Positions 10,436 through 23,014 of a stretch of 23,014 nt of DNA are shown here, piece by piece (positions within the stretch are counted from its first letter, which is position 1; each line of letters opens with the position of its first letter). The notes under the pieces were generated by a model. It had not been told where the DNA came from and ran no database searches. It was given only the letters and a program-made list of their open reading frames with translations. The stretch lies in IMG/VR virus record IMGVR_UViG_3300034375_009390. The stretch is one strand, 5' to 3'. Source of the stretch: an uncultured virus (IMG/VR IMGVR_UViG_3300034375_009390). Taxonomy: Duplodnaviria; Heunggongvirae; Uroviricota; Caudoviricetes. A program made the translations under genes and the position numbers.

Positions 10436-10508
10436 TAGCCGACCCCGGATTCGAACCGGGACTTGAGCGATTTTAAGTCGCTTGCCTCTGCCGTTGGGCT
10501 AGCCGGCC
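10436..10508 (-). tRNA. trnL: tRNA-Leu (anticodon UAA), short variable loop, CCA not encoded
   Basis: Minus strand GGCCGGC TA GCCCAACGGCAGAGGC A AGCGA CTTAAAA TCGCT CAAGT CCCGG TTCGAAT CCGGG GTCGGCT A; full 73-nt cloverleaf, anticodon at 10473-10475, discriminator A. Confidence 0.93.
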
Positions 10509-13201: not shown

Positions 13202-13429
13202 TTACACACCCTTAAGCATCCCACGCTGACGAAGCAACTCGATCAAGCTTCCTCCGGGAGCGTTCTCTAAAAGCTCGTTCATACGGCGATCGTCCCGCCG
13301 TTGATTGACCAGATCACGAAACTGATCTTGATCAAGAGGGAAAGAAACGTCACCGTCACCGGTAACACCAGCAATCATCTGCTCGGCGATGACTTTATCG
13401 AGGAACTGCTTAGCGATGTCGCCGGGCAT
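13202..13429 (-). CDS. Hypothetical protein
   Basis: 75-aa ORF with ATG start. Confidence 0.65.
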   Translation of the reverse strand: MPGDIAKQFLDKVIAEQMIAGVTGDGDVSFPLDQDQFRDLVNQRRDDRRMNELLENAPGGSLIELLRQRGMLKGV

Positions 13430-13502
13430 GTCGTTAAAAATACCTGAGTTAACTTTAGCGTGTAAAAGATCCTAGGATTAAATCGACCTACATCTCCCCA
13501 AA

Positions 13503-13697
13503 GTGACTCGGGAGTGGAATACACCCACGCGTGAACCGTGGAATACAGCGATTAAGACTGCACTAGACACTCTAGACAAACATAATCAGTTTTATTTTAA
13601 AACAAACGATACAAAACACTTGATTTTAGCTCAATTACTACGAGATTACGTAAATTATCTTAAAAATTTGATCACGGAGACCGAAGACCAGCCCTAA
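13503..13697 (+). CDS. Small cyanophage-type protein (REWNTP.REPWN)
   Basis: 64 aa, GTG start; N-terminal motif recalled from cyanophage hypothetical proteins, not checked by search. Confidence 0.7.
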   Translation: MTREWNTPTREPWNTAIKTALDTLDKHNQFYFKTNDTKHLILAQLLRDYVNYLKNLITETEDQP

Positions 13698-13699
13698 CT

Positions 13700-13733
13700 C
13701 CGCTTCGCGGGCGCCTTCATGGTGTGCTATAGT
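13700..13733 (+). promoter_or_regulatory. Triloop hairpin plus GCGCC motif and extended -10 (GTGTGC-TATAGT)
   Basis: CCGC-TTC-GCGG-GCGCC-TTCATG-GTGTGC-TATAGT, 25 nt before the ATG at 13759. Confidence 0.6.
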
Positions 13734-13758
13734 AAGCACGTAGTCACATCACAAGCAC

Positions 13759-13863
13759 ATGCGCACCTACAAAGTCCGTCTCGGCGTCTCTGGTCGTTCA
13801 GTCGGTAGCCGCACGGGAAGAAAAACCTCTTCTAGCTGGAGCAAGCGCGTCCGCTGGACCTGA
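13759..13863 (+). CDS. Very basic 34-aa peptide
   Basis: MRTYKVRLGVSGRSVGSRTGRKTSSSWSKRVRWT, bracketed by a promoter-like site and a terminator. Confidence 0.55.
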   Translation: MRTYKVRLGVSGRSVGSRTGRKTSSSWSKRVRWT

Positions 13864-13874
13864 AAAGTTTGACG

Positions 13875-13902
13875 AGTCGCCCCACGCGGGCGATTTTTTT
13901 TT
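13875..13902 (+). terminator. Rho-independent terminator
   Basis: AGTCGCCC-CACGC-GGGCGATT stem-loop running into T9 (13894-13902). Confidence 0.85.
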
Positions 13903-14074
13903 CGACAAGCGGCTGATTGTATACTGACACTCAAAAGTTTTACCTCAATTTCCCAGCAAGATACCCATACCCTTCTCGCCCGGGGCGTCGTCGAAAGGCT
14001 CTATTTAAAAAAAAGGCGAATTGCGGGCAGGATTGCGCATACATGTAAACCATTTACATTTATATTTAGGCCCC

Positions 14075-14182
14075 CGCGTGCGTGCGCGTGTACATGTGCG
14101 CGTGTGCGCCTGCGTGTACGCGTGTGCGCGTATATACGCGCGTGGGTGTGCGCGTTACATTCGCGCGTGCGGACGCGTGCGC
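14075..14182. repeat. Alternating purine-pyrimidine (CG/TG/TA) low-complexity tract with central palindrome
   Basis: Unbroken alternation at 14075-14109 and 14111-14144 plus shorter runs; perfect palindrome GCGCGTATATACGCGC at 14126-14141. Confidence 0.9.
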
Positions 14183-14217
14183 CCGGTTCTTGTTACCTAC
14201 CAGCAAGCCCCGGAGAG

Positions 14218-14277
14218 TGTGCCAATCAACTATCCGGCACAAGACTGTTGACTCCCTGCACTGATCCGGCATACCTT
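14218..14277 (+). promoter_or_regulatory. Sigma70-type early promoter with upstream inverted repeat
   Basis: TGTGCC-N12-GGCACA (14218-14241), -35 TTGACT (14248-14253), 18-nt spacer, -10 TACCTT (14272-14277). Confidence 0.6.
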
Positions 14278-14317
14278 GTGGTCACTGGAGGAACGGGGTG
14301 AGAGCCACGCCGCCAGG

Positions 14318-14330
14318 GCACCTGGACAAC
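14318..14330 (+). promoter_or_regulatory. boxA-like antitermination element 1
   Basis: GCACCTGGACAAC directly after a CTGG...CCAG-closed hairpin (boxB-like position). Confidence 0.5.
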
Positions 14331-14466
14331 CGAAGAGGAACCGCCGGGCCGAACCAGCCCCGCAACTGCCGCCGATGGTAGGGAGAACATCCCCGAAGTG
14401 TAGGCGATGGCAGACGTGGTGTGCCGGAACGTGAAGCAGCGGATCCTTAAAGGTAACTAGGTGAGA

Positions 14467-14479
14467 GAACCTTGACAAT
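14467..14479 (+). promoter_or_regulatory. boxA-like antitermination element 2
   Basis: GAACCTTGACAAT matches the cyanobacterial rrn boxA pattern GAACCTTGA(A/C)AA. Confidence 0.6.
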
Positions 14480-15105
14480 CTAAATAGTTAGTCGTGCTGA
14501 GATAGTTTGCACGGAAAGCCTAAGGTATGGCTAACTGTTTTACATAATGTGGCACCGTCAAGAGACGGAACTAGGGGTGCGAGCGATCCCCCGAGCACAA
14601 TAGAGTTGCAACCCGACTCGCTAAGTGTGCACGGTGCCGTATGTCAGCAGGTATCTTGTCTGTAACTAAGGAAATGTATCGGCGTTAAACATTAGCCACG
14701 CTCGCCACGTGGCGACTGAATACAACCTACATGCTGTCCGTATGTAGTTAGTTACAGTACACAAGCTGTGTCCAGAGTATCTGTCCTTAGTGCAGGTACG
14801 CTGGACAGACTACCTAAGCTCCACTGCACCGTCTGTGCACGATGGCAGCGCAGGATTATATAGTTTGTGTGCACAATTGTGTGCTGTAACTAACTACATG
14901 CAGCAGTTTAGTTTCAGTTAGCTGGCCCGACTTTTAGTTGGGGAAGTCCAGCTAACGCCTAGCGTATTGTCGCTTGGTATGTATCAGGATCAAGTTAGAT
15001 CATTCTTGATCACAGACTGTAGACTCTCTCCCCAAGCTTATCAGTTTGGTGAGGGATTCACTCCCTCTTTGTTGTTAGCTGCCAGCTCTATTGCTGGTGA
15101 ATGTT

Positions 15106-15414
15106 ATGAACATCCGCACGAACAATGTTCCTCGCGATCTGATGCACTTGTGCGACTTTAGCCCATCAGATCAAGACAAGATCCGCAAGCAATACGATTG
15201 GATGGATCCTAATGATCTTGAGTGTAACTATGGTTTCTTTAAATATCGTGGTTGCATTTATCATCTGCAAGAGTTTCTAACTACAGAGAATGTAGCGTCC
15301 GGTGCTCTTACTGAATGGGATGGATGCCTCGGCGATTCATATTTCAGCGGCACACTTATCAAGCTCGCCGACAACGACTGCGACCGTGTGATCGTAGGTC
15401 GTTACTTCTGCTGA
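15106..15414 (+). CDS. Hypothetical early phage protein
   Basis: MNIRTNNVPRDL...FFKYRG..YHLQEF...WDG...DSYFSG; first gene of the plus-strand array. ATG at 15106 preferred. Confidence 0.8.
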   Translation: MNIRTNNVPRDLMHLCDFSPSDQDKIRKQYDWMDPNDLECNYGFFKYRGCIYHLQEFLTTENVASGALTEWDGCLGDSYFSGTLIKLADNDCDRVIVGRYFC

Positions 15415-15418
15415 TTAA

Positions 15419-15440
15419 CTGTAACTAATCCAACGCAATC
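15419..15440 (+). repeat. Start-associated intergenic repeat, copy 1
   Basis: CTGTAACTAATCCAACGCAATC between the stop at 15414 and the ATG at 15446. Confidence 0.9.
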
Positions 15441-15445
15441 AAACC

Positions 15446-15703
15446 ATGACTGAACTGCAAACTACTGTGTACACTCTGCCCGCACACTGGGCCAGCATTC
15501 TGATCAACCACGATTACACCGGCACAAGTGACGAAGAAGAACAAGAGATTAGTAACTTTATCGACGGTGAATTCGGTGAGTCTCTGTTCTGTACTGTGTG
15601 CCTAACTGATAACGACAGCGAACCCGAGTTCCGTAAGTATCATGACGCACAACCTTATGGTGTGCTTGCTTGTGACTGCCTGGACTACACATTCATTCAC
15701 TGA
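15446..15703 (+). CDS. Hypothetical acidic phage protein
   Basis: 85 aa, YTLPAHWASILIN.D.TG pattern; preceded by the repeat. Confidence 0.8.
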   Translation: MTELQTTVYTLPAHWASILINHDYTGTSDEEEQEISNFIDGEFGESLFCTVCLTDNDSEPEFRKYHDAQPYGVLACDCLDYTFIH

Positions 15704-15707
15704 TCAA

Positions 15708-15729
15708 CTGTAACTAACCCAACACAATC
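15708..15729 (+). repeat. Start-associated intergenic repeat, copy 2
   Basis: CTGTAACTAACCCAACACAATC, identical to 16118-16139. Confidence 0.92.
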
Positions 15730-15734
15730 TGATC

Positions 15735-15950
15735 ATGACCAAAGAGTCTTACTACTTTGTCGCTGAACGTACAACAACTCGCCGTGGTTGTACTCAAGAT
15801 AAGCAGGAACTTATCTGCATCAACGCCGATAGTTTCCACGCTGCTGATAAGTGGATCAACGCCAACTACAAAGGTTGGATTCATTATCACGTCACCGAAC
15901 CCGCGCCTTATCTGTTCACTGCCACCAACTTTTGCGCTTACTCTGCCTGA
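15735..15950 (+). CDS. Hypothetical protein
   Basis: 71 aa; preceded by the repeat. Confidence 0.75.
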   Translation: MTKESYYFVAERTTTRRGCTQDKQELICINADSFHAADKWINANYKGWIHYHVTEPAPYLFTATNFCAYSA

Positions 15951-15952
15951 TT

Positions 15953-16117
15953 ATGACCTACTACATCAACCGCCAAGCTGGCCGTTATCACGAAACGGTC
16001 GATGAGTTTGTGTCACGTTCTGAAGCAGAACGTATGTGTAAAGAGTACCAATTCGGCGAGCACGGTAGAGCTTACTTCTACGTCTCTCGTGTTGCACGTC
16101 CTAACTGGACTGTCTGA
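15953..16117 (+). CDS. Hypothetical phage protein (54 aa)
   Basis: MTYYINRQAGRYHETVDEFVSRSEAERMCKEY...; 3' part of track ORF 15851..16117, ATG 2 nt after the previous stop. Confidence 0.75.
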   Translation: MTYYINRQAGRYHETVDEFVSRSEAERMCKEYQFGEHGRAYFYVSRVARPNWTV

Positions 16118-16139
16118 CTGTAACTAACCCAACACAATC
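16118..16139 (+). repeat. Start-associated intergenic repeat, copy 3
   Basis: CTGTAACTAACCCAACACAATC immediately after the TGA ending at 16117. Confidence 0.92.
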
Positions 16140-16150
16140 ACATTAACATC

Positions 16151-16423
16151 ATGGCAACCATTCAACATCTCTGTGCTCGCAACGATGTCAACGGCAACCC
16201 ACAACGTTTGTATGTTCTATCTGTAGACGGTGAGCAGATCGCTGCGTGGGATGAAGGCTACCTAGGTCACCACGCTATGCCTGGTATCTGGCGCGATGCT
16301 GCATACAATGCAGAGCGTATTGATTGCAGCGTGGCACTGTATCGCAAACTATTGCGTACACTTCCTTCACCCGATTGGGCTCACGATGTGCCAGGTTATG
16401 CACATCTCCGCGAGCACGTTTGA
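16151..16423 (+). CDS. Hypothetical phage protein
   Basis: 90 aa, NDVNGNPQRLYV...AAWDEGYLG; preceded by the repeat. Confidence 0.8.
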   Translation: MATIQHLCARNDVNGNPQRLYVLSVDGEQIAAWDEGYLGHHAMPGIWRDAAYNAERIDCSVALYRKLLRTLPSPDWAHDVPGYAHLREHV

Positions 16424-16458
16424 TCAATTCACTGTCATCAATTCCCCTGCATCTGCCT

Positions 16459-16473
16459 CCGTAACTAACCCAA
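16459..16473 (+). repeat. Start-associated intergenic repeat, copy 4 (partial)
   Basis: CCGTAACTAACCCAA before the ATG at 16487. Confidence 0.8.
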
Positions 16474-16486
16474 TCGCGCCCTAATT

Positions 16487-16681
16487 ATGTACATCGACAA
16501 CACACAACTTGACCGTGAATTCATGCGTCGCATGATACGTGCGTATGAACAGGATCTGCTGCAGTTAGTCAGCGAAACCCCAGATCACCCTGGTGGTGAC
16601 TGGGCACGCGAACATCTAGCCAAACTAGAAGAACTGCGCGGACTTACATTCAGCTCATTCACTCAAACTGTTACCTTCTGA
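16487..16681 (+). CDS. Hypothetical protein
   Basis: 64-aa ORF in the array. Confidence 0.7.
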   Translation: MYIDNTQLDREFMRRMIRAYEQDLLQLVSETPDHPGGDWAREHLAKLEELRGLTFSSFTQTVTF

Positions 16682-16683
16682 TC

Positions 16684-16899
16684 ATGTCTTACAACAGCAT
16701 GTCCAACTTCCACAAAGATCAGATCTTGCACGTAGTTAGTAACTACATGACATCAGAGATGCGACGCATAATGATGCGGGAGTGTCCGGCAGCATACAAC
16801 GCACTGTGCGGACGTACAGTTGTAACTTCTCAGGTAGAAGACACAGGCCGTAAGGTTATCGAACGTCCGGAGGATGAAGGAGCCATAACCTTTAACTAG
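16684..16899 (+). CDS. Hypothetical protein
   Basis: 71-aa ORF, 2 nt after the previous stop. Confidence 0.7.
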   Translation: MSYNSMSNFHKDQILHVVSNYMTSEMRRIMMRECPAAYNALCGRTVVTSQVEDTGRKVIERPEDEGAITFN

Positions 16900-16900
16900 A

Positions 16901-16922
16901 CTCGCTCCGCGAGGCGCCCTCA
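16901..16922 (+). promoter_or_regulatory. Triloop hairpin plus GCGCCCTCA motif
   Basis: CTCGC-TCC-GCGAG-GCGCCCTCA, intergenic. Confidence 0.65.
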
Positions 16923-16940
16923 CACAATTACATCAACATC

Positions 16941-17399
16941 ATGGGACTCGATCAGTACCTTCAAGCTGACTATTACTTCTCCGACACATGGGATAACAAC
17001 AATGGCAAAGCTGCTGAGATCGCCCGAATCTGTGATCTTCCCTCTGGCTTAGTTAGATCTAAACAAGTATCTGTGCGCATCACATTGATGCACTGGCGCA
17101 ACACACAGTGGCTGCACGATTACATAATCGAACACGCACAAGCTGATTGTGATGCTTCTGAATGTTATGTAGACACGAAAGTTCTAGAGGATTTCATTGT
17201 TGACGCCACGCGGGTGATCGACGGCGAGGATCCTATTGATTGTATGTTTCCTAACCCTGATTGGAGTGATCTACTTAAACACTACGACCGTAAACACACA
17301 GACTACGATCGTTTAGTCCTTGTTGAGACACGCGACAAGTTTATCGAGATAATTAACACACTCCCCTGCGTTGACTTCTACTACCGTTCAAGTTGCTAA
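16941..17399 (+). CDS. Conserved phage hypothetical protein (MGLD.YL / WR...LH family)
   Basis: MGLDQYL...MHWRNTQWLHDYI...FYYRSS pattern. Confidence 0.8.
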   Translation: MGLDQYLQADYYFSDTWDNNNGKAAEIARICDLPSGLVRSKQVSVRITLMHWRNTQWLHDYIIEHAQADCDASECYVDTKVLEDFIVDATRVIDGEDPIDCMFPNPDWSDLLKHYDRKHTDYDRLVLVETRDKFIEIINTLPCVDFYYRSSC

Positions 17400-17403
17400 C
17401 ACA

Positions 17404-17604
17404 ATGATCACACTAACTACACTTGACGAATATGGTGTAACTTACGCCGTAGACACATTCCTATCTGTTGAAGACGCTAAAGATGCTCTGTGGCAGATGG
17501 AATGCACACTAGATGAAATGCCACACGGCGCTCGTTATTACGAATTGCAGGACGCAATCGCGGATCTTCGTTCCCAAATTACAGAGCATGAATCAAATGA
17601 CTAA
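17404..17604 (+). CDS. Hypothetical protein
   Basis: ATG at 17404 within track ORF 17371..17604. Confidence 0.7.
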   Translation: MITLTTLDEYGVTYAVDTFLSVEDAKDALWQMECTLDEMPHGARYYELQDAIADLRSQITEHESND

Positions 17605-17779
17605 GCAACAAGCCCTAACTGAGTTTCGGTGCCTTTGGGCTGATTCAGTTAGCTACGATCCTACATTGCGCAGAGACACTGCTGCAAAGCGTGAAGCATT
17701 TAGTGACTTCGTGAAGTTGTTAAATCAACAACGGCTAGTGTCTGATCGCCAAGTTTACACTTGGTCTAATCCTTTCTAA
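17597..17779 (+). CDS. Small cyanophage-type protein (MTK.QAL..F...AKREAF...W.NPF)
   Basis: ATG at 17597 within track ORF 17513..17779; overlaps the previous gene's end. Confidence 0.75.
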   Translation: MTKQQALTEFRCLWADSVSYDPTLRRDTAAKREAFSDFVKLLNQQRLVSDRQVYTWSNPF

Positions 17780-17784
17780 ACATC

Positions 17785-17961
17785 ATGCCCAATCACTTCC
17801 CTTACGACGTGTACAACCTGGACTCACACTCTCTGTCCTACCACGCTCTCGCACAATTCAGACAGATTCTCCTTAAAGAGAAGATGCCTCTCGACATTGT
17901 GGACACAATCGAGGATCGAATCATCCCAGCACTCGAACACATTGTGTCCAGCGACTACTAA
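17785..17961 (+). CDS. Hypothetical protein (58 aa)
   Basis: MPNHFPYDVYNLDSHSLSYHALAQFRQILLKEKMPLDIVDTIEDRIIPALEHIVSSDY; fills the gap, below the track cutoff. Confidence 0.7.
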   Translation: MPNHFPYDVYNLDSHSLSYHALAQFRQILLKEKMPLDIVDTIEDRIIPALEHIVSSDY

Positions 17962-18000
17962 CTTTTAACTAACCAAACACATCAACATCACATCAACGTC

Positions 18001-18348
18001 ATGCGTAAGATCGAAGCACAAATGCTGCAGGCTATTGCCAATAAGCAAGACTGGAAGTGCGACAACACTGAGGTTGTTGTAACGTACTTCGCCCACGCTG
18101 ATCGAATGATTGATCGTGCAACTGTTTACCTGCACGGCAGCCCGATTGCACAAGTCAGCCCCAATACAGTAACAGTGTGCGACTGTGGTTATCAGACCGC
18201 AACAACGAAGTCACGTATCAACACCATCTTGCGCGAACTGTGTGGTGGTGGTGTGTACCAGAGGAATCACAAGTGGTACGGCTACTCTAGTACCGAAACG
18301 GAATGGTTGATCGAGCCTAATTCCTCCTACTGTTTCGTGCGAGGCTAA
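18001..18348 (+). CDS. Cyanophage-type hypothetical protein (MRKIE.QM..AI)
   Basis: 115 aa, VYLHG..IA...G.QT.TTKSRIN.IL pattern; preceded by degenerate repeat TAACTAACCAAACAC (17966-17980). Confidence 0.85.
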   Translation: MRKIEAQMLQAIANKQDWKCDNTEVVVTYFAHADRMIDRATVYLHGSPIAQVSPNTVTVCDCGYQTATTKSRINTILRELCGGGVYQRNHKWYGYSSTETEWLIEPNSSYCFVRG

Positions 18349-18367
18349 AGCACTATCATCAATCCCT

Positions 18368-18403
18368 CCCAGCTTCGCTGGGGCCGCCCTCATAATGTAC
18401 AAT
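18368..18403 (+). promoter_or_regulatory. Triloop hairpin plus GCCGCCCTCA motif and -10-like TACAAT
   Basis: CCCAGC-TTC-GCTGGG-GCCGCCCTCA-TAATG-TACAAT, intergenic. Confidence 0.65.
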
Positions 18404-18423
18404 CAAGTGCATTTACTAACACC

Positions 18424-18672
18424 ATGAAACTTGTAAGCTCTAGGCACATCGACATTGCCAATCTCAAAGGCGCCATCGTAACTAACACAAACGGCGCTGA
18501 GTTCTACGTTCTCGGATTTGAGGTTGACGTTGAGTCCCACACGATCAACATCGTGATGCAACCAACTGACGGTAGTGGTCCAATAGGTTTACTGTGGGAT
18601 CATATTAAAGACTGGACAATCGCACTGCAGCCGATCCACTGGCTCAACGACATCCTGACAATTAGCAAATGA
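18424..18672 (+). CDS. Hypothetical protein
   Basis: 82-aa ORF. Confidence 0.7.
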   Translation: MKLVSSRHIDIANLKGAIVTNTNGAEFYVLGFEVDVESHTINIVMQPTDGSGPIGLLWDHIKDWTIALQPIHWLNDILTISK

Positions 18673-18929
18673 AACGCGCAGAACTAATCGACTTGTACGC
18701 TGACATCACCGTAAGCTCAATGGATTACAGCGAGCTTGAATCCTTTGTGTACAACATGATCGCCCAACAACTAGAAACAGAAACAGACAACAAGCTGGTC
18801 GATCGGTTTTACAAAGACATCTGCGAAAGCAAGCCCAAATACCTGTGGGATCTTGGACGCACGGTCTTAACGAAAGACGAAGTGCAAGCGTACCTTAACT
18901 CAACTTCCGTAACTAATCCAACCCACTAA
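18669..18929 (+). CDS. Hypothetical protein
   Basis: 86 aa, ATGA-coupled; 3' end runs through a repeat copy (18907-18922). Confidence 0.7.
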   Translation: MKRAELIDLYADITVSSMDYSELESFVYNMIAQQLETETDNKLVDRFYKDICESKPKYLWDLGRTVLTKDEVQAYLNSTSVTNPTH

Positions 18930-19198
18930 CCAAGTACTCATAGATAAACCCTGCGGCGAAACACATCATCAGCCACGTGCCAAGATCAAACGGTATATCG
19001 TACATAGGTAAGTAGAAATGCTTACCCTGTCAGTCTGGCCGTACATCATCAGCCTGTCTCGTATCGTTCACGACACATCATGAAACCCAGACACACTGGC
19101 AACATCCTTAAACATCTGCCCAACCCTTACAAACATCTCCTTTAACCCTGTGGGAGTTGACTGGGCGCCACGCTGCTCTCCCGCGAACTAAATTCACT

Positions 19199-19220
19199 CC
19201 GGCTTCGCCGGGCCGCCGCA
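19199..19220 (+). promoter_or_regulatory. Triloop hairpin plus GCCGCCGCA motif
   Basis: CCGGC-TTC-GCCGG-GCCGCCGCA, 12 nt before the ATG at 19233. Confidence 0.65.
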
Positions 19221-19232
19221 TTATTTACTACG

Positions 19233-19631
19233 ATGCCTTTCTCGCCTACACAACCTCCAGAAGACATAACTAAATGTCCCAAATGCGCGTCACACGCCTT
19301 TTATGTTCTTGAGACTCGCTCAAACAGAGAGTATACAAGACGTAGAAGATACTGCAAACAGTGTGAGTATCGTGCAACATTTTACGAAGTCTCAAAGGAG
19401 CGTTACCTGCAGTTTCAAGCTGACTCTAAAGCGTTGAGCCGGTTACTTGATCAACTCCAAAGTCTCTTGGATACAAGAGGTGAACAATCTCAAGAAGTTA
19501 AAGTTCCGAAAGTTAAGTCTATACCTTGTAAGGATTGCAGTTACGCGCCTGAAGGAAAGTGTTCATTCGAATACCCGGAGGCGTTCACATTAGAAGCACA
19601 CGATTGCTCTATGTTCATACAAAAGCACTAA
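19233..19631 (+). CDS. Zinc-ribbon protein with NrdR-like N-terminal domain and a second Cys cluster
   Basis: CPKC...VLETR....TRRRRYCKQC.YR.TFYE, then PCKDC...CSF.YPE.....DC; no ATP-cone seen. Confidence 0.8.
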   Translation: MPFSPTQPPEDITKCPKCASHAFYVLETRSNREYTRRRRYCKQCEYRATFYEVSKERYLQFQADSKALSRLLDQLQSLLDTRGEQSQEVKVPKVKSIPCKDCSYAPEGKCSFEYPEAFTLEAHDCSMFIQKH

Positions 19632-19771
19632 GAGGAAAATCTCGTTAAGTAGAAGCTAGTTTACAGAAAGTTTTTACTAGTCAGTGGTTCGATACGCTAT
19701 AACACTAAGTTAAATAATGGAAAGAAGACTGAGCGACGCTGTGATAAATTAGCTTCGCTTTCCTCTCAACC

Positions 19772-19945
19772 ATGCGTAAGCAGGAATCTGCGGTTAAAGA
19801 GTTCGACATCTTCAGTAACCATAAGGGGCCGTGGGGTTTCTTGTGCTCAGTTGAAGCAAACAACGAAAACGATGCAAAACTGATTGCGATGAGGGAGCAC
19901 CACATCTTCCATCACAATCAAGTCTCCGTCTACCCGAAGAAATAA
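19772..19945 (+). CDS. Hypothetical protein (57 aa)
   Basis: MRKQESAVKEFDIFSNHKGPWGFLCSVEANNENDAKLIAMREHHIFHHNQVSVYPKK; co-oriented with neighbours, below the track cutoff. Confidence 0.7.
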   Translation: MRKQESAVKEFDIFSNHKGPWGFLCSVEANNENDAKLIAMREHHIFHHNQVSVYPKK

Positions 19946-19976
19946 CCTGTGTTAAACCATGTACAGGGTGGTGGCT

Positions 19977-19988
19977 GTGTGCTACCAT
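19977..19988 (+). promoter_or_regulatory. Putative extended -10 promoter GTGTGC-TACCAT
   Basis: Identical 12-mer to the minus-strand site at 11013-11024; intergenic, upstream of 20046. Confidence 0.55.
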
Positions 19989-20045
19989 TCTGTATAAGGC
20001 GGCACCGGCCTTTAACGTGGCGCACCAACCTCACTTCGTATCACC

Positions 20046-20468
20046 GTGAACATCAAAACATCTGATCTCGTCTGTCTCGGCGAGCGTGCAGCTGCCACGT
20101 GGGACGAACGCGATCGTGCGCAAACAGCCTTAGACGTAGCTTTCGGAACTCCTTTCGAAGCTGCGAAAGACAACCTGCTGCGTGACATCACGATTGCAGA
20201 ATCTTCCGGGGTCGACCTTTCGATCTTTAGCGGCACTGACAGCCGTTTTAAGTTTCCTGATCTTCACACGAACATCGTCGTTCGCATCTCTCGTAAACCC
20301 ACGCCGCACGCCAAACTCGAAAAGCTTGCCGACAAAGTGGCGAAGCTTGAGCAGGATCTTAAAGTTGCCAAGATGCAACTTAAGCACACAGCCGAACAAC
20401 TCATCGCACAGCAAGAGTGCGACGAGATCACCGACAAAATTACCCTCGCCTTCACCCGTCTCAAATGA
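20046..20468 (+). CDS. Hypothetical protein with C-terminal coiled coil
   Basis: 140 aa, GTG start. Confidence 0.75.
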   Translation: MNIKTSDLVCLGERAAATWDERDRAQTALDVAFGTPFEAAKDNLLRDITIAESSGVDLSIFSGTDSRFKFPDLHTNIVVRISRKPTPHAKLEKLADKVAKLEQDLKVAKMQLKHTAEQLIAQQECDEITDKITLAFTRLK

Positions 20469-20626
20469 TGACAAAGAAGCTGCAGGATTTCGCACTGTTT
20501 ACAGTAGCGAGCACGATCATGGCGATCACAGCTTTCGGTGCTCTTGGTCTTGATCCAAGCGAAGCACACCACTCTAAAAGTTGTGAATCAACACAAAGCC
20601 TTGACGTCAAGTGCTCCAAGCACTAA
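20465..20626 (+). CDS. Small membrane/exported protein
   Basis: MMTKKLQDFALFTVASTIMAITAFGALG...; ATGA-coupled. Confidence 0.6.
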   Translation: MMTKKLQDFALFTVASTIMAITAFGALGLDPSEAHHSKSCESTQSLDVKCSKH

Positions 20627-20647
20627 CCTACGCTAGAGCTTGAGCTC

Positions 20648-20679
20648 GGATCCCTTGTGCTACACAAGGGATTCTCTTT
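20648..20679 (+). terminator. Strong intergenic hairpin (terminator or processing/stability stem)
   Basis: GGATCCCTTGTG-CTA-CACAAGGGATTC followed by TCTTT; weak U tail. Confidence 0.5.
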
Positions 20680-20710
20680 ATCCACCTCACAGTCACTCCC
20701 GTAACTAAAC

Positions 20711-21907
20711 GTGAACCACTACCTTCTGTCCTGCTCCATTTCTGCGGACGTCCGCCAATCCGTACAGATTAAATTCGACGACCTCAAACTGCCTCAACAA
20801 GTTATCGACACACTCGAAGCGAACAATACGGTCAGCATTCGACCGCACCTTTCAAATGCACTGAAAGCAAAGCTCGACGCACTGCGTGTTAAGCAACGTC
20901 AACTGTACGATGCCTACTGCATTCATTACGGGGACGCTCACTTCGTTACAGCTTCTTACTTTCAGGAAGCTAACGAGATGATCAAAGAGATTAAGCGCGA
21001 CGCAGAGGGATACAACGAAGAACTCAAAGGTATGTGGGAACAGGAGTATGCACGCTGGCAAGAAACAGCCAGCGGAATTCTTCGACCGCTGTTCTCTGAA
21101 GATACAGAGTACTCAATCGCATTCGATGCGTACATGCGGTTTTTCCCCACGCGGGAGGAATACCGTAAGCCTATTCGTGTGTCGGTTCTCGGTCCCCTTC
21201 CTGTATCTCTTCAGAAAGTTGAGGCGCCTGTCGATGGTGACATTGATTCCGTTCTCGCTTACGAAAACGCGATCAACACACAACAAGTTCTCGAAGCCGC
21301 TAAAGCATCTGCCTCTGACAAAGCTTTGACACTCGGAGCTCAGCTGCTCGATGATCTAGACGTGCGTAGCGTTACTAAGATCGGGAGGCAACAGACGGGA
21401 TCAGAAAAGAAACGTGGTAGCTGGCAGATTACTGCAGAGAAACTCAAGCTCATCAGTGACAGCGTACCGGCTTTTAGTGATCTCGCTGTCCTCGCAGATC
21501 GTCTCCTGGAATCTGGCAACAACCTACAGTCTCCCGATCGTTCTATACGGACGAAGGCTACGGAGAACTTCTACGCAGTCCAGGAAGAAATCCGGACAGA
21601 GCTTTCTAACATCTGCGGTAGCCACAGCAGCTCCAAGGGTTTAGAGAAACTGCAGCAGTCTCTTGCACTGAGTTCACAGTACAAACTCCTCTGCGACAAG
21701 ATCAAAACTGCCGAAAGTACAAACACTCTGAATCTTCTGGTCAAAGACGCAAACACTGAGATCGACATCTACGAACAGCGTTCTAAGCAACTCCGCAAGC
21801 TGATCTCGCAACGACGCGAGCTCATCCAAGCTGCAGGAGATAACCTCGATGAACTCATCGAAGGTGTTAACTCACAAATCGACGAACAACCTGAAGCCGA
21901 CTTCTAA
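20711..21907 (+). CDS. DUF3150-like helical protein
   Basis: 398 aa, GTG start directly after CCGTAACTAAAC. Overall pattern (...HFV....EIKRD...EY..W...FPTREEY...) and position before an AAA ATPase resemble DUF3150. Family call by eye. Confidence 0.55.
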   Translation: MNHYLLSCSISADVRQSVQIKFDDLKLPQQVIDTLEANNTVSIRPHLSNALKAKLDALRVKQRQLYDAYCIHYGDAHFVTASYFQEANEMIKEIKRDAEGYNEELKGMWEQEYARWQETASGILRPLFSEDTEYSIAFDAYMRFFPTREEYRKPIRVSVLGPLPVSLQKVEAPVDGDIDSVLAYENAINTQQVLEAAKASASDKALTLGAQLLDDLDVRSVTKIGRQQTGSEKKRGSWQITAEKLKLISDSVPAFSDLAVLADRLLESGNNLQSPDRSIRTKATENFYAVQEEIRTELSNICGSHSSSKGLEKLQQSLALSSQYKLLCDKIKTAESTNTLNLLVKDANTEIDIYEQRSKQLRKLISQRRELIQAAGDNLDELIEGVNSQIDEQPEADF

Positions 21908-22110
21908 TGGATCGAACAGTCTTCGTATTTAAGACACATCAGGGGTATCTCTCTGATGTGAATCACTACACTCACGACGTTGCACGTGCTGTTTCGTTTG
22001 TAGATTTTGACTCGGCTGTAAGCAGATTGGCAGCAGTCAGTGGGACACTCACTGAACCTGTGTCAATCGAAGAAGTTTCAATTCCTTTTCCCCGTCCTTT
22101 CCCTCAGTAA
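21907..22110 (+). CDS. Hypothetical protein
   Basis: 67 aa, TAATG-coupled. Confidence 0.7.
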   Translation: MDRTVFVFKTHQGYLSDVNHYTHDVARAVSFVDFDSAVSRLAAVSGTLTEPVSIEEVSIPFPRPFPQ

Positions 22111-22114
22111 AACA

Positions 22115-23014
22115 GTGAACGATCAACTTTTCAGCAAGCTTCAAAACTTCCGTGGTGCTCTTAACTCTGCCACGCTCGAACGCGAACACGTTATCGACGG
22201 TCTCCTCGCTTCTGTAATCTCTAAACAGAATGCTTTCCTTCTCGGTGCTCCGGGCACTGGCAAGAGTGATCTCGTCCGTAGCGTTTGTAAGGGTATCAAA
22301 GGTGCTGACTACTTTGGCTATCTCCTGACGCCTACAACTGATCCAAGCGAACTGTTCGGTCCTGTCGCGGTCACCAAACTCCTCAAAGACGAATACACAC
22401 GCGACGTCTCCGGTTATCTTCCCTCGGCTCACATCGGTTTCCTCGATGAGCTGTTCCGCAGTTCTTCTGCGATTCTGAACTCGCTTCTGTCGCTACTGAA
22501 CGAACGTACGTTTAACAACGGAAATGAAGTCGTAAAGACTCCTCTGCAATCAATCATCGCTGCCACAAACAGCTGGCCACAAGAGGAGTCGCTGCAAGCG
22601 TTCGCCGATCGCTTTCTTTTCCGTCCGACAGTTGAGCTCCTCAAGAAGCCCGTGTCGAAGCGGACACTAGATGAGTGGGCACTGGGCATCGAAGAACGCC
22701 CAGAGGTTGGCGAGTTTCTGACACTCGACGAGCTCAACCAAATCCAGGAGTATGCCAAGACCCTTAAAGTCTCGGACGATTTTCTCGACAAGTTCAATTC
22801 TGTCTGGCAGATGCTGTCCCAACGCAGCATCACAATCTCAGATCGTCGTCGTGTTCAGATCCTGAAGTTCCTTCGCGCGTGGGCAATCGTTCAAGGTGAT
22901 GAAGAGCTTTACCCTGAGCACATGCACAACAGTATCGTACACATCGTGTACAACGATCTCGAAGACCAAAGCACTATCATCGAGATCTTGGAGCAGGAGA
23001 TTCCCACGGCGGAG
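22115..23014 (+). CDS. MoxR-family AAA+ ATPase, RavA-like (3' truncated by the window)
   Basis: GTG at 22115, open for 300 codons to the edge. Walker A GAPGTGKS, ELFGP, GYLP.A, Walker B GFLDELFR, AILNSLLSLLNER, AATN, DRFLFR, ISDRR. Not in the ORF track because it has no stop. Confidence 0.92.
   Translation, partial: MNDQLFSKLQNFRGALNSATLEREHVIDGLLASVISKQNAFLLGAPGTGKSDLVRSVCKGIKGADYFGYLLTPTTDPSELFGPVAVTKLLKDEYTRDVSGYLPSAHIGFLDELFRSSSAILNSLLSLLNERTFNNGNEVVKTPLQSIIAATNSWPQEESLQAFADRFLFRPTVELLKKPVSKRTLDEWALGIEERPEVGEFLTLDELNQIQEYAKTLKVSDDFLDKFNSVWQMLSQRSITISDRRRVQILKFLRAWAIVQGDEELYPEHMHNSIVHIVYNDLEDQSTIIEILEQEIPTAE

Follow-up and report, generated by a model that had tools for sequence, protein, structure and literature searches.

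Genomic setting of the leader

The stretch of DNA considered here, referred to below as the window, comprises 23,014 nucleotides (nt) from an uncultured virus of the Caudoviricetes (IMG/VR record IMGVR_UViG_3300034375_009390) and corresponds to bases 6135–29148 of one viral contig of 48,990 base pairs (bp), the completeness of which is put at 61% by CheckV. The element in question lies on the plus strand at 14284–15105, where a conserved, heavily folded RNA leader stands ahead of the early genes of this cyanobacterial virus and carries copies of boxA, a signal of host ribosomal RNA (rrn) operons, together with a three-way-junction motif. The contig codes for the large terminase, portal, DNA polymerase A, primase-helicase, ThyX and dCMP deaminase. 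The late genes run mostly leftward, while the small early genes form a rightward column starting at 15106, and the two arms are separated by a gene-free stretch at about 13430–15105. The first early gene (15106–15414, plus strand) encodes 102 amino acids (aa) without a family match, and its relatives are 65–100% identical. A preliminary description of this DNA had found no credible open reading frame (ORF) before 15106, and this agrees with our analysis: all frames within 13430–15105 fall short of 100 aa, measuring 40–64 aa only, and none of them is conserved. Natural variants from metagenome runs contain single-base indels within 14284–15105, which is consistent with non-coding sequence, and ARAGORN reported 0 tRNA or tmRNA genes in 13400–15200.

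The preliminary description had also claimed that most of the span folds. Folding of 14284–15076 was compared with 20 shuffles per strand; the plus strand folds at −313.6 kcal/mol (z −7.12) and the minus strand at −285.4 kcal/mol (z −6.77), so that the plus strand is the more stable by 28 kcal/mol. Because none of the 20 shuffles folds as well on either strand, the inverted repeats in this span are genuine; folding energy alone hardly separates the plus from the minus strand. At the gathering score, Rfam 15 gave nothing in the span, the sole match being a tRNA gene at 10436–10508 (minus strand, 52.5 bits), located between late and accessory genes; at E ≤ 10 there was just low-complexity microRNA and small nucleolar RNA noise on a neighbouring GCGTGTGC-like tract.

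A covarying three-way junction

The core motif of the leader, about 90 nt long, occupies 14551–14638 of the plus strand and is scored at 85.6 bits in the window by covariance model R1. Its closing stem P1 (14551–58/14631–38) is joined by the purine-rich, conserved segment J1/2 (14559–73) to P2 (14574–77/14589–92), which carries a conserved 11-nt loop, UGCGAGCGAUC; the third arm consists of P3a (14595–99/14626–30) and P3b (14603–08/14614–19), with the loop CAACC. Across members, the P2 loop is almost invariant as (A/U/C)GCGAG(C/A/U)GAUC and the P3 loop as CAAC(C/U); the junction and the loops vary little or not at all, and the stems covary. The inner arms that the preliminary description had placed in a Domain A (GGCACCGT/ACGGTGCC, GGGG/CCCC, GCACA/TGTGC and GAGTTG/CGACTC) are confirmed by this covariation. 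Five diverse members were included in the Rfam 15 comparison, and no family matches either the span or the motif. A possible likeness of J1/2 to the glutamine riboswitch was dropped, as no Rfam match supports it.

With blastn against 50,697 phage records, one match of 62–67 nt only was obtained (window 14552–14617), in the Synechococcus podoviruses S-CBP1 and DSL-LC07, where it is flanked by the last late gene on one side and the first early gene on the other. Scanning IMG/VR with a pattern yielded 41 loci, and a looser version yielded 94, of which R1 accepts 85; eight of the 94 were rejected by R1 as chance matches. The 85 loci and the window make 86 R1 matches with 58 distinct sequences. The loose-pattern scan of genome contigs returned chance matches only, in GC-rich bacteria and archaea, and the sole R1 match in 151 cyanobacterial genomes (35.6 bits) is likewise attributed to chance, since it falls within a 577-aa ORF of the opposite strand. 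Judged by sequence, the three-way junction is common to T7-like Synechococcus podoviruses and the phage group of the window.

In alignment A4, in which the 58 distinct sequences were fitted by R1, pairing extends to 97.4% of cells, compared with 30–40% in slid-partner controls, and 17 of the 23 pairs are compensated. Covariation scores 0.487 in this alignment; shuffles give 0.116 ± 0.008, with 0 of 500 attaining the observed value, and slid partners 0.018–0.074. In alignment A3, made from 28 sequences with MAFFT and left unfitted, 95.5% of cells pair and 14 of 23 pairs are compensated. Compensatory changes exceed the controls, which is the general mark of a conserved structured RNA. The divergent members L217 and L243 compensate the otherwise invariant inner P1, and since the same two members break a local hairpin CGUC/GACG that might replace inner P1, that hairpin was rejected. 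One U-G pair, found in 52 of the 58 distinct sequences, identifies the RNA as the sense strand, and the base-pair covariation among relatives is on the plus strand; the G-U pairs taken in the preliminary description as a sign of selection on plus-strand RNA were in this respect a sound guide.

Identity to the boxA of host rRNA operons

On nascent rRNA of the species studied, boxA is the loading site of NusB and S10/NusE. Two copies stand upstream of the core motif on the plus strand: copy 1b, GAACCTTGACAA, at 14467–14478, which matches the rrn boxA of small cyanobacterial genomes in every base, and a boxA-like copy 1a, GCACCTGGACAA, at 14318–14329, 10/12 identical to copy 1b. Copy 1a is kept as GCACCT(A/G)GA(C/A)AA in 9 of 10 aligned relatives, and its CCUGG is paired by RNAalifold with CUAGG at about 14456–60. 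Both had been missed in the preliminary description, and they speak for a leader that acts in cis on transcription, not for a free RNA like GOLLD or ROOL.

The box upstream of the core motif has the consensus G(C/A)ACCTnGA(C/T)AA in all loci. Within 130 nt of the motif, NNNCCTNGAHAA is found in 63 of 67 distinct upstream regions, and the remaining four are one base off. The distance from boxA to P1 is 5–12 nt in 54 regions, those of podoviruses, and 71–92 nt in nine of the window type; the wider gap of the latter is due to the hairpin A1 inserted there.

Among five cyanobacterial genomes (1.6–2.7 Mb), GAACCTTGACAA occurs at seven places, five of them between tRNA-Ala and 23S, one about 130 nt upstream of 16S and one after a lone tRNA; in this sample of five, the agreement with a host-type rrn boxA is 12/12. 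By raw, uncorrected count, the 12-mer is present in 265 of 401 sampled cyanobacterial genomes. In PMC8461337, the boxA of the cyanobacterial 16S–23S spacer is printed as GAACCTTGAAAA, to which copy 1b is 11/12 identical. The host flank ...CAGCAGAACCTTGACAACTGCATAGGT is similar to the phage sequence ...CCAGCACCTAGACAATTGCATATGTAGGT, and the likeness continues into the host D4 flank.

It is ruled out that all boxA 12-mers belong to rrn operons, as the loci L276 and L277 hold the 12-mer with no rRNA or tRNA. In larger cyanobacterial genomes, at least 8 of 30 loci (L278, L280, L281, L282 and L289–L292) have it 20–45 nt upstream of an ORF beginning MA(T/A)IQQQKIRIRLKAF. For one of these ORFs the product was confirmed to be ribosomal protein S10 (NusE), and there the 12-mer stands 21 nt upstream of the gene. 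The cyanobacterial arrangement hints at boxA-mediated NusE autoregulation. A boxA upstream of rpsJ is described for gamma-proteobacteria by Baniulyte et al. (PMC5725501).

Further helices and the modular build of the leader

RNAalifold was run on alignment blocks from window-type loci, of which nine have the core motif and two more, L048 and L050, do not. Directly at the 5' end, a hairpin CUGG...CCAG (14285–14315, plus strand, as are all the helices that follow) with GAGCCAC in its loop region takes a boxB-like place before boxA, as in rrn spacers; it is present in relatives with a varied interior, and RNAalifold recovers 3 inner pairs only. The 5' quarter of the leader is weakly resolved, with 26 RNAalifold pairs of which 4 are compensated. 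GAGCCAC (14302–14308) and AUGGCA (14409–14414) are kept in both types of phage and would be able to pair as GCCA/UGGC; in podoviruses these elements lie downstream of the motif, and both are invariant, so that there is no covariation by which to judge the pairing.

Hairpin domain A1 (14486–14536), closed by GUUAGUCGU/AUGGCUAAC, was obtained with RNAalifold, and 5 of the 10 pairs of its closing helix are changed on both sides among 9 sequences. The closing helix formerly drawn for Domain A (14529–40/14687–97) is not confirmed, as GGCTAAC pairs locally with GTTAGTC (14486–94/14527–36). At the 14-nt palindrome of the preliminary description there is indeed an inverted repeat, which is now seen as part of a hairpin GCCACG/CGUGGC at 14695–14713; its stem is compensated in relatives, where it reads GCAACC/GGUUGC, AUCAC/GUGAU or GUCGUU/AGCGAC by eye.

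Domain B (14740–14901) consists of a 25-bp closing helix around two hairpins, with 43 RNAalifold pairs in 10 sequences, 16 of them compensated. The 25-bp helix (14740–64/14877–901) is found in all 10 sequences, its 12-bp centre invariant and both of its ends covarying, and covariation upholds the helix as first described and also both enclosed arms. The 3' arm is a copy of an intergenic early-gene motif, CTGTAACTAAC, and the 5' arm is its reverse complement. As the repeat C(T/C)GTAACTAA(C/T)CCAAC, this motif also stands some 10–30 nt ahead of early-gene starts, at the place expected of a Shine-Dalgarno sequence, with copies at 15421, 15710, 16120, 16461, 18909 and 20701; further copies lie at 14662 and 14886, and a reverse copy at 14755. 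Three further hairpins (about 14928–44, 15003–16 and 15032–49) occupy 14917–15049; CCCGAC/GUUGGG and CCAAGC/GUUUGG covary, which confirms the hairpins near 14928–14944 and 15032–15049, but GAUCA/UGAUC at about 15003–15016 is near-invariant and uninformative.

The modules also differ between close relatives. At the site aligned to window 14549–14640, L048 has another, hairpin-forming insert (about 1120–1180), and L196, L179 and L193 have an insert of about 190 nt following the core motif; from these alignments, the motif site looks as if it were a cassette slot. The absence of the motif from L048 and L050 indicates that it is dispensable for the basic job of the leader, an add-on. A single nested fold, as first drawn, is not found, since the modules are separately conserved and separately exchangeable. 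What stands of the proposed undescribed large phage RNA is a conserved sense-strand structure with no Rfam family, downstream of a putative host-type promoter; the span makes better sense as a modular, boxA-bearing 5' leader to the early operon than as one RNA of the GOLLD/ROOL kind.

Promoter, terminator-like hairpins and order of elements

A putative host sigma-70-type early promoter, TTGACT-N18-TACCTT, can be read from the sequence at 14248–14277 (plus strand), 190 nt upstream of boxA 1b. This promoter, already named in the preliminary description, is plausible, its TTGAC, spacing and position being conserved in relatives, but a consensus promoter scan did not list 14248–14277. In related loci, T(T/A)GACA-N16-19-TAnnnT lies upstream in 46 of the 67 distinct regions. 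Directly upstream of the early promoter, an alternating purine-pyrimidine tract like GCGTGTGC (14064–14214) is conserved in relatives and might be Z-DNA-prone or an origin element. Further upstream in the gene-free stretch, a strong terminator-like hairpin with a nine-T run is found at 13874–13896 (plus strand); with a TATAGT at about 13727, it could delimit a small RNA gene of about 150 nt.

In relatives, the elements follow the order promoter, hairpin, boxA and motif. Podoviruses have a GGUGG...CCACC hairpin, identified by eye, at the same place as the 5'-proximal hairpin of the window, and after the motif they have first a hairpin with a GAG(C/U)CACA loop (52 of 55 distinct downstream regions) and next a TnG(A/T)TCATGGC box (49 of 55), behind which the first gene begins. 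These elements fill just about 200 nt directly ahead of the ribosome site of the first gene, and the same pieces are spread over 800 nt in the window. The podovirus GAGCCACA-loop hairpin was rejected as a classical intrinsic terminator, its tail being A/T-rich and U-poor (3–5 T in 12 for 40 of 52), and the conserved ATGGCA was rejected as a leader-peptide start, as the frames differ between relatives by eye. The leader and the phage polymerase gene downstream of it are some 4.6–5.4 kb apart in three podovirus records, so that host polymerase must travel far in these phages. In the window's group, a T7-type RNA polymerase was not found in the available part of the contig, and no phage RNA polymerase gene was seen in three window-type records (51–89% complete).

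Near the end of the leader, the terminator scan gave a hairpin GAGGGA-UUCAC-UCCCUC followed by UUUGUUGUU (15051–15076, plus strand). Its stem (15051–15067, GAGGGA/UCCCUC) is invariant in 9 of 9 relatives and hence uninformative on pairing, and the upstream UCUCUC (15026–31) can also pair with GAGGGA, the two folds being near-isoenergetic (−16.3 versus −15 to −16.2 kcal/mol). Within the early operon, a 12-bp GC-rich terminator-like hairpin at 20648–20674 (plus strand) precedes a 398-aa gene at 20711.

Proposed mechanism

The alignments give conservation, covariation, strand, identity to the host boxA, and fixed order and spacing directly; from these we infer the transcription start, Nus binding, antitermination and the role of the motif. 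Host RNA polymerase would transcribe the early-operon leader (about 14284–15105) from the promoter at 14248–14277, and the layout would copy that of host rRNA antitermination, with the hairpin first and then boxA. The boxA would load the host Nus-factor complex onto the polymerase, which would then run fast and read through the hairpin at 15051–15076 and later ones such as that at 20648–20674. The three-way junction keeps a fixed place immediately behind boxA, which suggests that the two are parts of one signal, with the junction as an accessory cis-acting module; the junction could act like boxB/boxC or like the put RNA of phage HK022, binding a host factor or the polymerase itself, and it has passed as a cassette between unrelated cyanophages. 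To an rrn-style, Nus-factor-dependent antitermination leader acting on host polymerase, the likeliest mechanism, we assign about an even chance of being correct.

Several observations weigh against it. The folding z-scores are alike for both strands. As evidence of RNA there are two contigs from one RNA library, which match 14320–14665, and this evidence is weak, as they may be DNA carry-over. Among the 17 early ORFs, PHROG and Pfam revealed neither an N-like protein nor any other RNA-binding one, and in L048 and L050 boxA and the remainder of the leader are present without the motif. Terminator-like sites in 13400–23014 show no excess, with 11 against 8.7 ± 2.5 in shuffles, and cyanobacteria reportedly lack Rho, which makes the target of antitermination hard to name. 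The accessibility of boxA predicted from the partition function is 0.48 against a leader mean of 0.40 in 55 podovirus leaders and 0.37–0.54 against 0.31–0.35 in 6 window-type leaders; on these predictions it is barely above average and not decisive. The boxA also contains TTGACA, which is readable as a −35 box; the box as a −35 hexamer was rejected, there being no −10 at 16–19 nt and position 7 varying freely.

A bolder form of the proposal is that the boxA-linked junction represents a new class of cis-acting RNA, which would reprogram cyanobacterial polymerase with the Nus complex or, put-like, alone, and would pass as a mobile cassette of about 90 nt between unrelated cyanophages. We hold this to be doubtful, though worth entertaining.

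Alternative explanations

The span might instead yield a stand-alone structured non-coding RNA of about 790 nt, ending at 15051–15076 and acting in trans, with boxA aiding its making and folding. A conserved terminator-like hairpin lies exactly at the end of the span, covarying domains extend along its whole length, rrn boxA normally heads structured untranslated RNAs, and the RNA-library contigs lie on the leader and not on 14666–15400, although this last point is weak and uncovered parts prove nothing. An attenuated product of about 790 nt, ending at the hairpin and U-tract of 15051–15076, is possible. However, the domains come and go among close relatives, and the podovirus counterparts occupy just the 200 nt or so ahead of the first gene; the 15051–15076 hairpin is short (6 bp), its U-tract is broken, and an alternative pairing of equal energy exists there. 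A trans-acting RNA is, in our view, unlikely.

The three-way junction could also be a sensor, that is, a riboswitch or protein-binding aptamer by which the state of the host sets a choice between terminator and antiterminator. An invariant junction and loops with covarying stems are typical of ligand- or protein-binding RNAs, the motif sits in a 5' leader, two near-isoenergetic folds are available at 15024–15080, and a conserved hairpin follows the motif in 52 of 55 distinct podovirus downstream regions. Yet Rfam offers no riboswitch match, no mutually exclusive pairing of the 3' strand of P1 with the downstream hairpin was seen by eye, the motif of the window is more than 400 nt from the terminator-like hairpin, and the tail of the podovirus hairpin is not U-rich (3–5 T in 12 for 40 of 52). 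We regard a sensor as rather unlikely.

The early region of T7 has RNA processing sites, and on this model the leader would be an element of RNA processing or stability, with RNase III/E sites and 5' protection of the early mRNA. The many long, near-perfect helices, such as that of 25 bp, and a 5'-terminal hairpin directly after the putative start would suit such a role; invariant junction and loop sequences are not needed for protection or cleavage, however, and an exact host boxA at fixed spacing is left unexplained, which makes this explanation improbable. Least probable is an element acting as DNA through its inverted repeats (a replication origin, packaging site or protein-binding array), for although the span lies between divergent arms and beside the purine-pyrimidine tract of 14064–14214, folds about equally well on both strands by z-score and has a 25-bp helix whose centre is invariant on both arms, the compensatory changes preserve pairing and not sequence in 17 of 23 core pairs, the conserved G-U pairs would turn into A-C mismatches if read on the opposite strand, and T7-like phages place the same elements between promoter and first gene.

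Comparison with known antitermination RNAs

The rRNA antitermination signals, arranged as boxB-boxA-boxC in the leader and as boxB-boxA-D4 in the cyanobacterial spacer (Iteman's nomenclature), share boxA with the antitermination leader proposed here, the 12-nt sequence being identical in the rRNA operons of small cyanobacterial genomes. As in those signals, the window has a hairpin just upstream of boxA, and boxA heads a long structured untranslated RNA; as in the spacer, a D4-like continuation follows in many podovirus loci. Unlike them, the boxA of the window belongs to a phage early operon, where Nus binding would follow by analogy, and boxA is followed by the three-way junction, which was not found in the 151 cyanobacterial genomes beyond the chance match.

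Lambdoid coliphages borrow Nus-factor antitermination from their host. In the nut site of lambda, boxA is accompanied by a boxB that is bound by N, and the present arrangement resembles it in that boxA is 5–12 nt before a folded RNA in 54 of 67 regions and, in the window, lies just behind the putative early promoter and ahead of the first early gene. In contrast to nut, the folded element is a three-way junction of about 90 nt and not a small hairpin, the combination of a boxB with an N-like arginine-rich protein is not seen, no N-like protein having been recognised, and the first gene is conserved in relatives without the motif.

The put RNAs of HK022 are cis-acting, protein-independent antiterminators with two stem-loops and no boxA. 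In this case too, a multi-stem RNA of less than 100 nt follows putative early promoters, and by analogy it presumably acts in cis on host polymerase; this comparison of put with the motif is one of general architecture. GOLLD and ROOL share with the window a large, ornate, covarying non-coding phage span without an assigned biochemical role. The span differs from them in having no Rfam match at the gathering score or at E ≤ 10, and in being modular, variable among close relatives, promoter-proximal to early genes and boxA-bearing.

Implications

No paper linking boxA to cyanophages or describing the motif was found, as judged by titles and the beginnings of abstracts. Its 58 distinct sequences, its very strong covariation and its constant association with boxA make the motif a good candidate for a new Rfam family, and its occurrence in the cultured phages S-CBP1 and DSL-LC07 makes its role testable at the bench. 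If the boxA-linked junction is a new class of RNA, it would modify the polymerase of hosts in which Rho is reported to be missing, and the cassette would serve both podoviruses that need about 5 kb of host transcription and a group in which a phage polymerase has not been detected. If antitermination by the leader holds, abundant freshwater and estuarine Synechococcus viruses would dress the host polymerase as if it were making rRNA.

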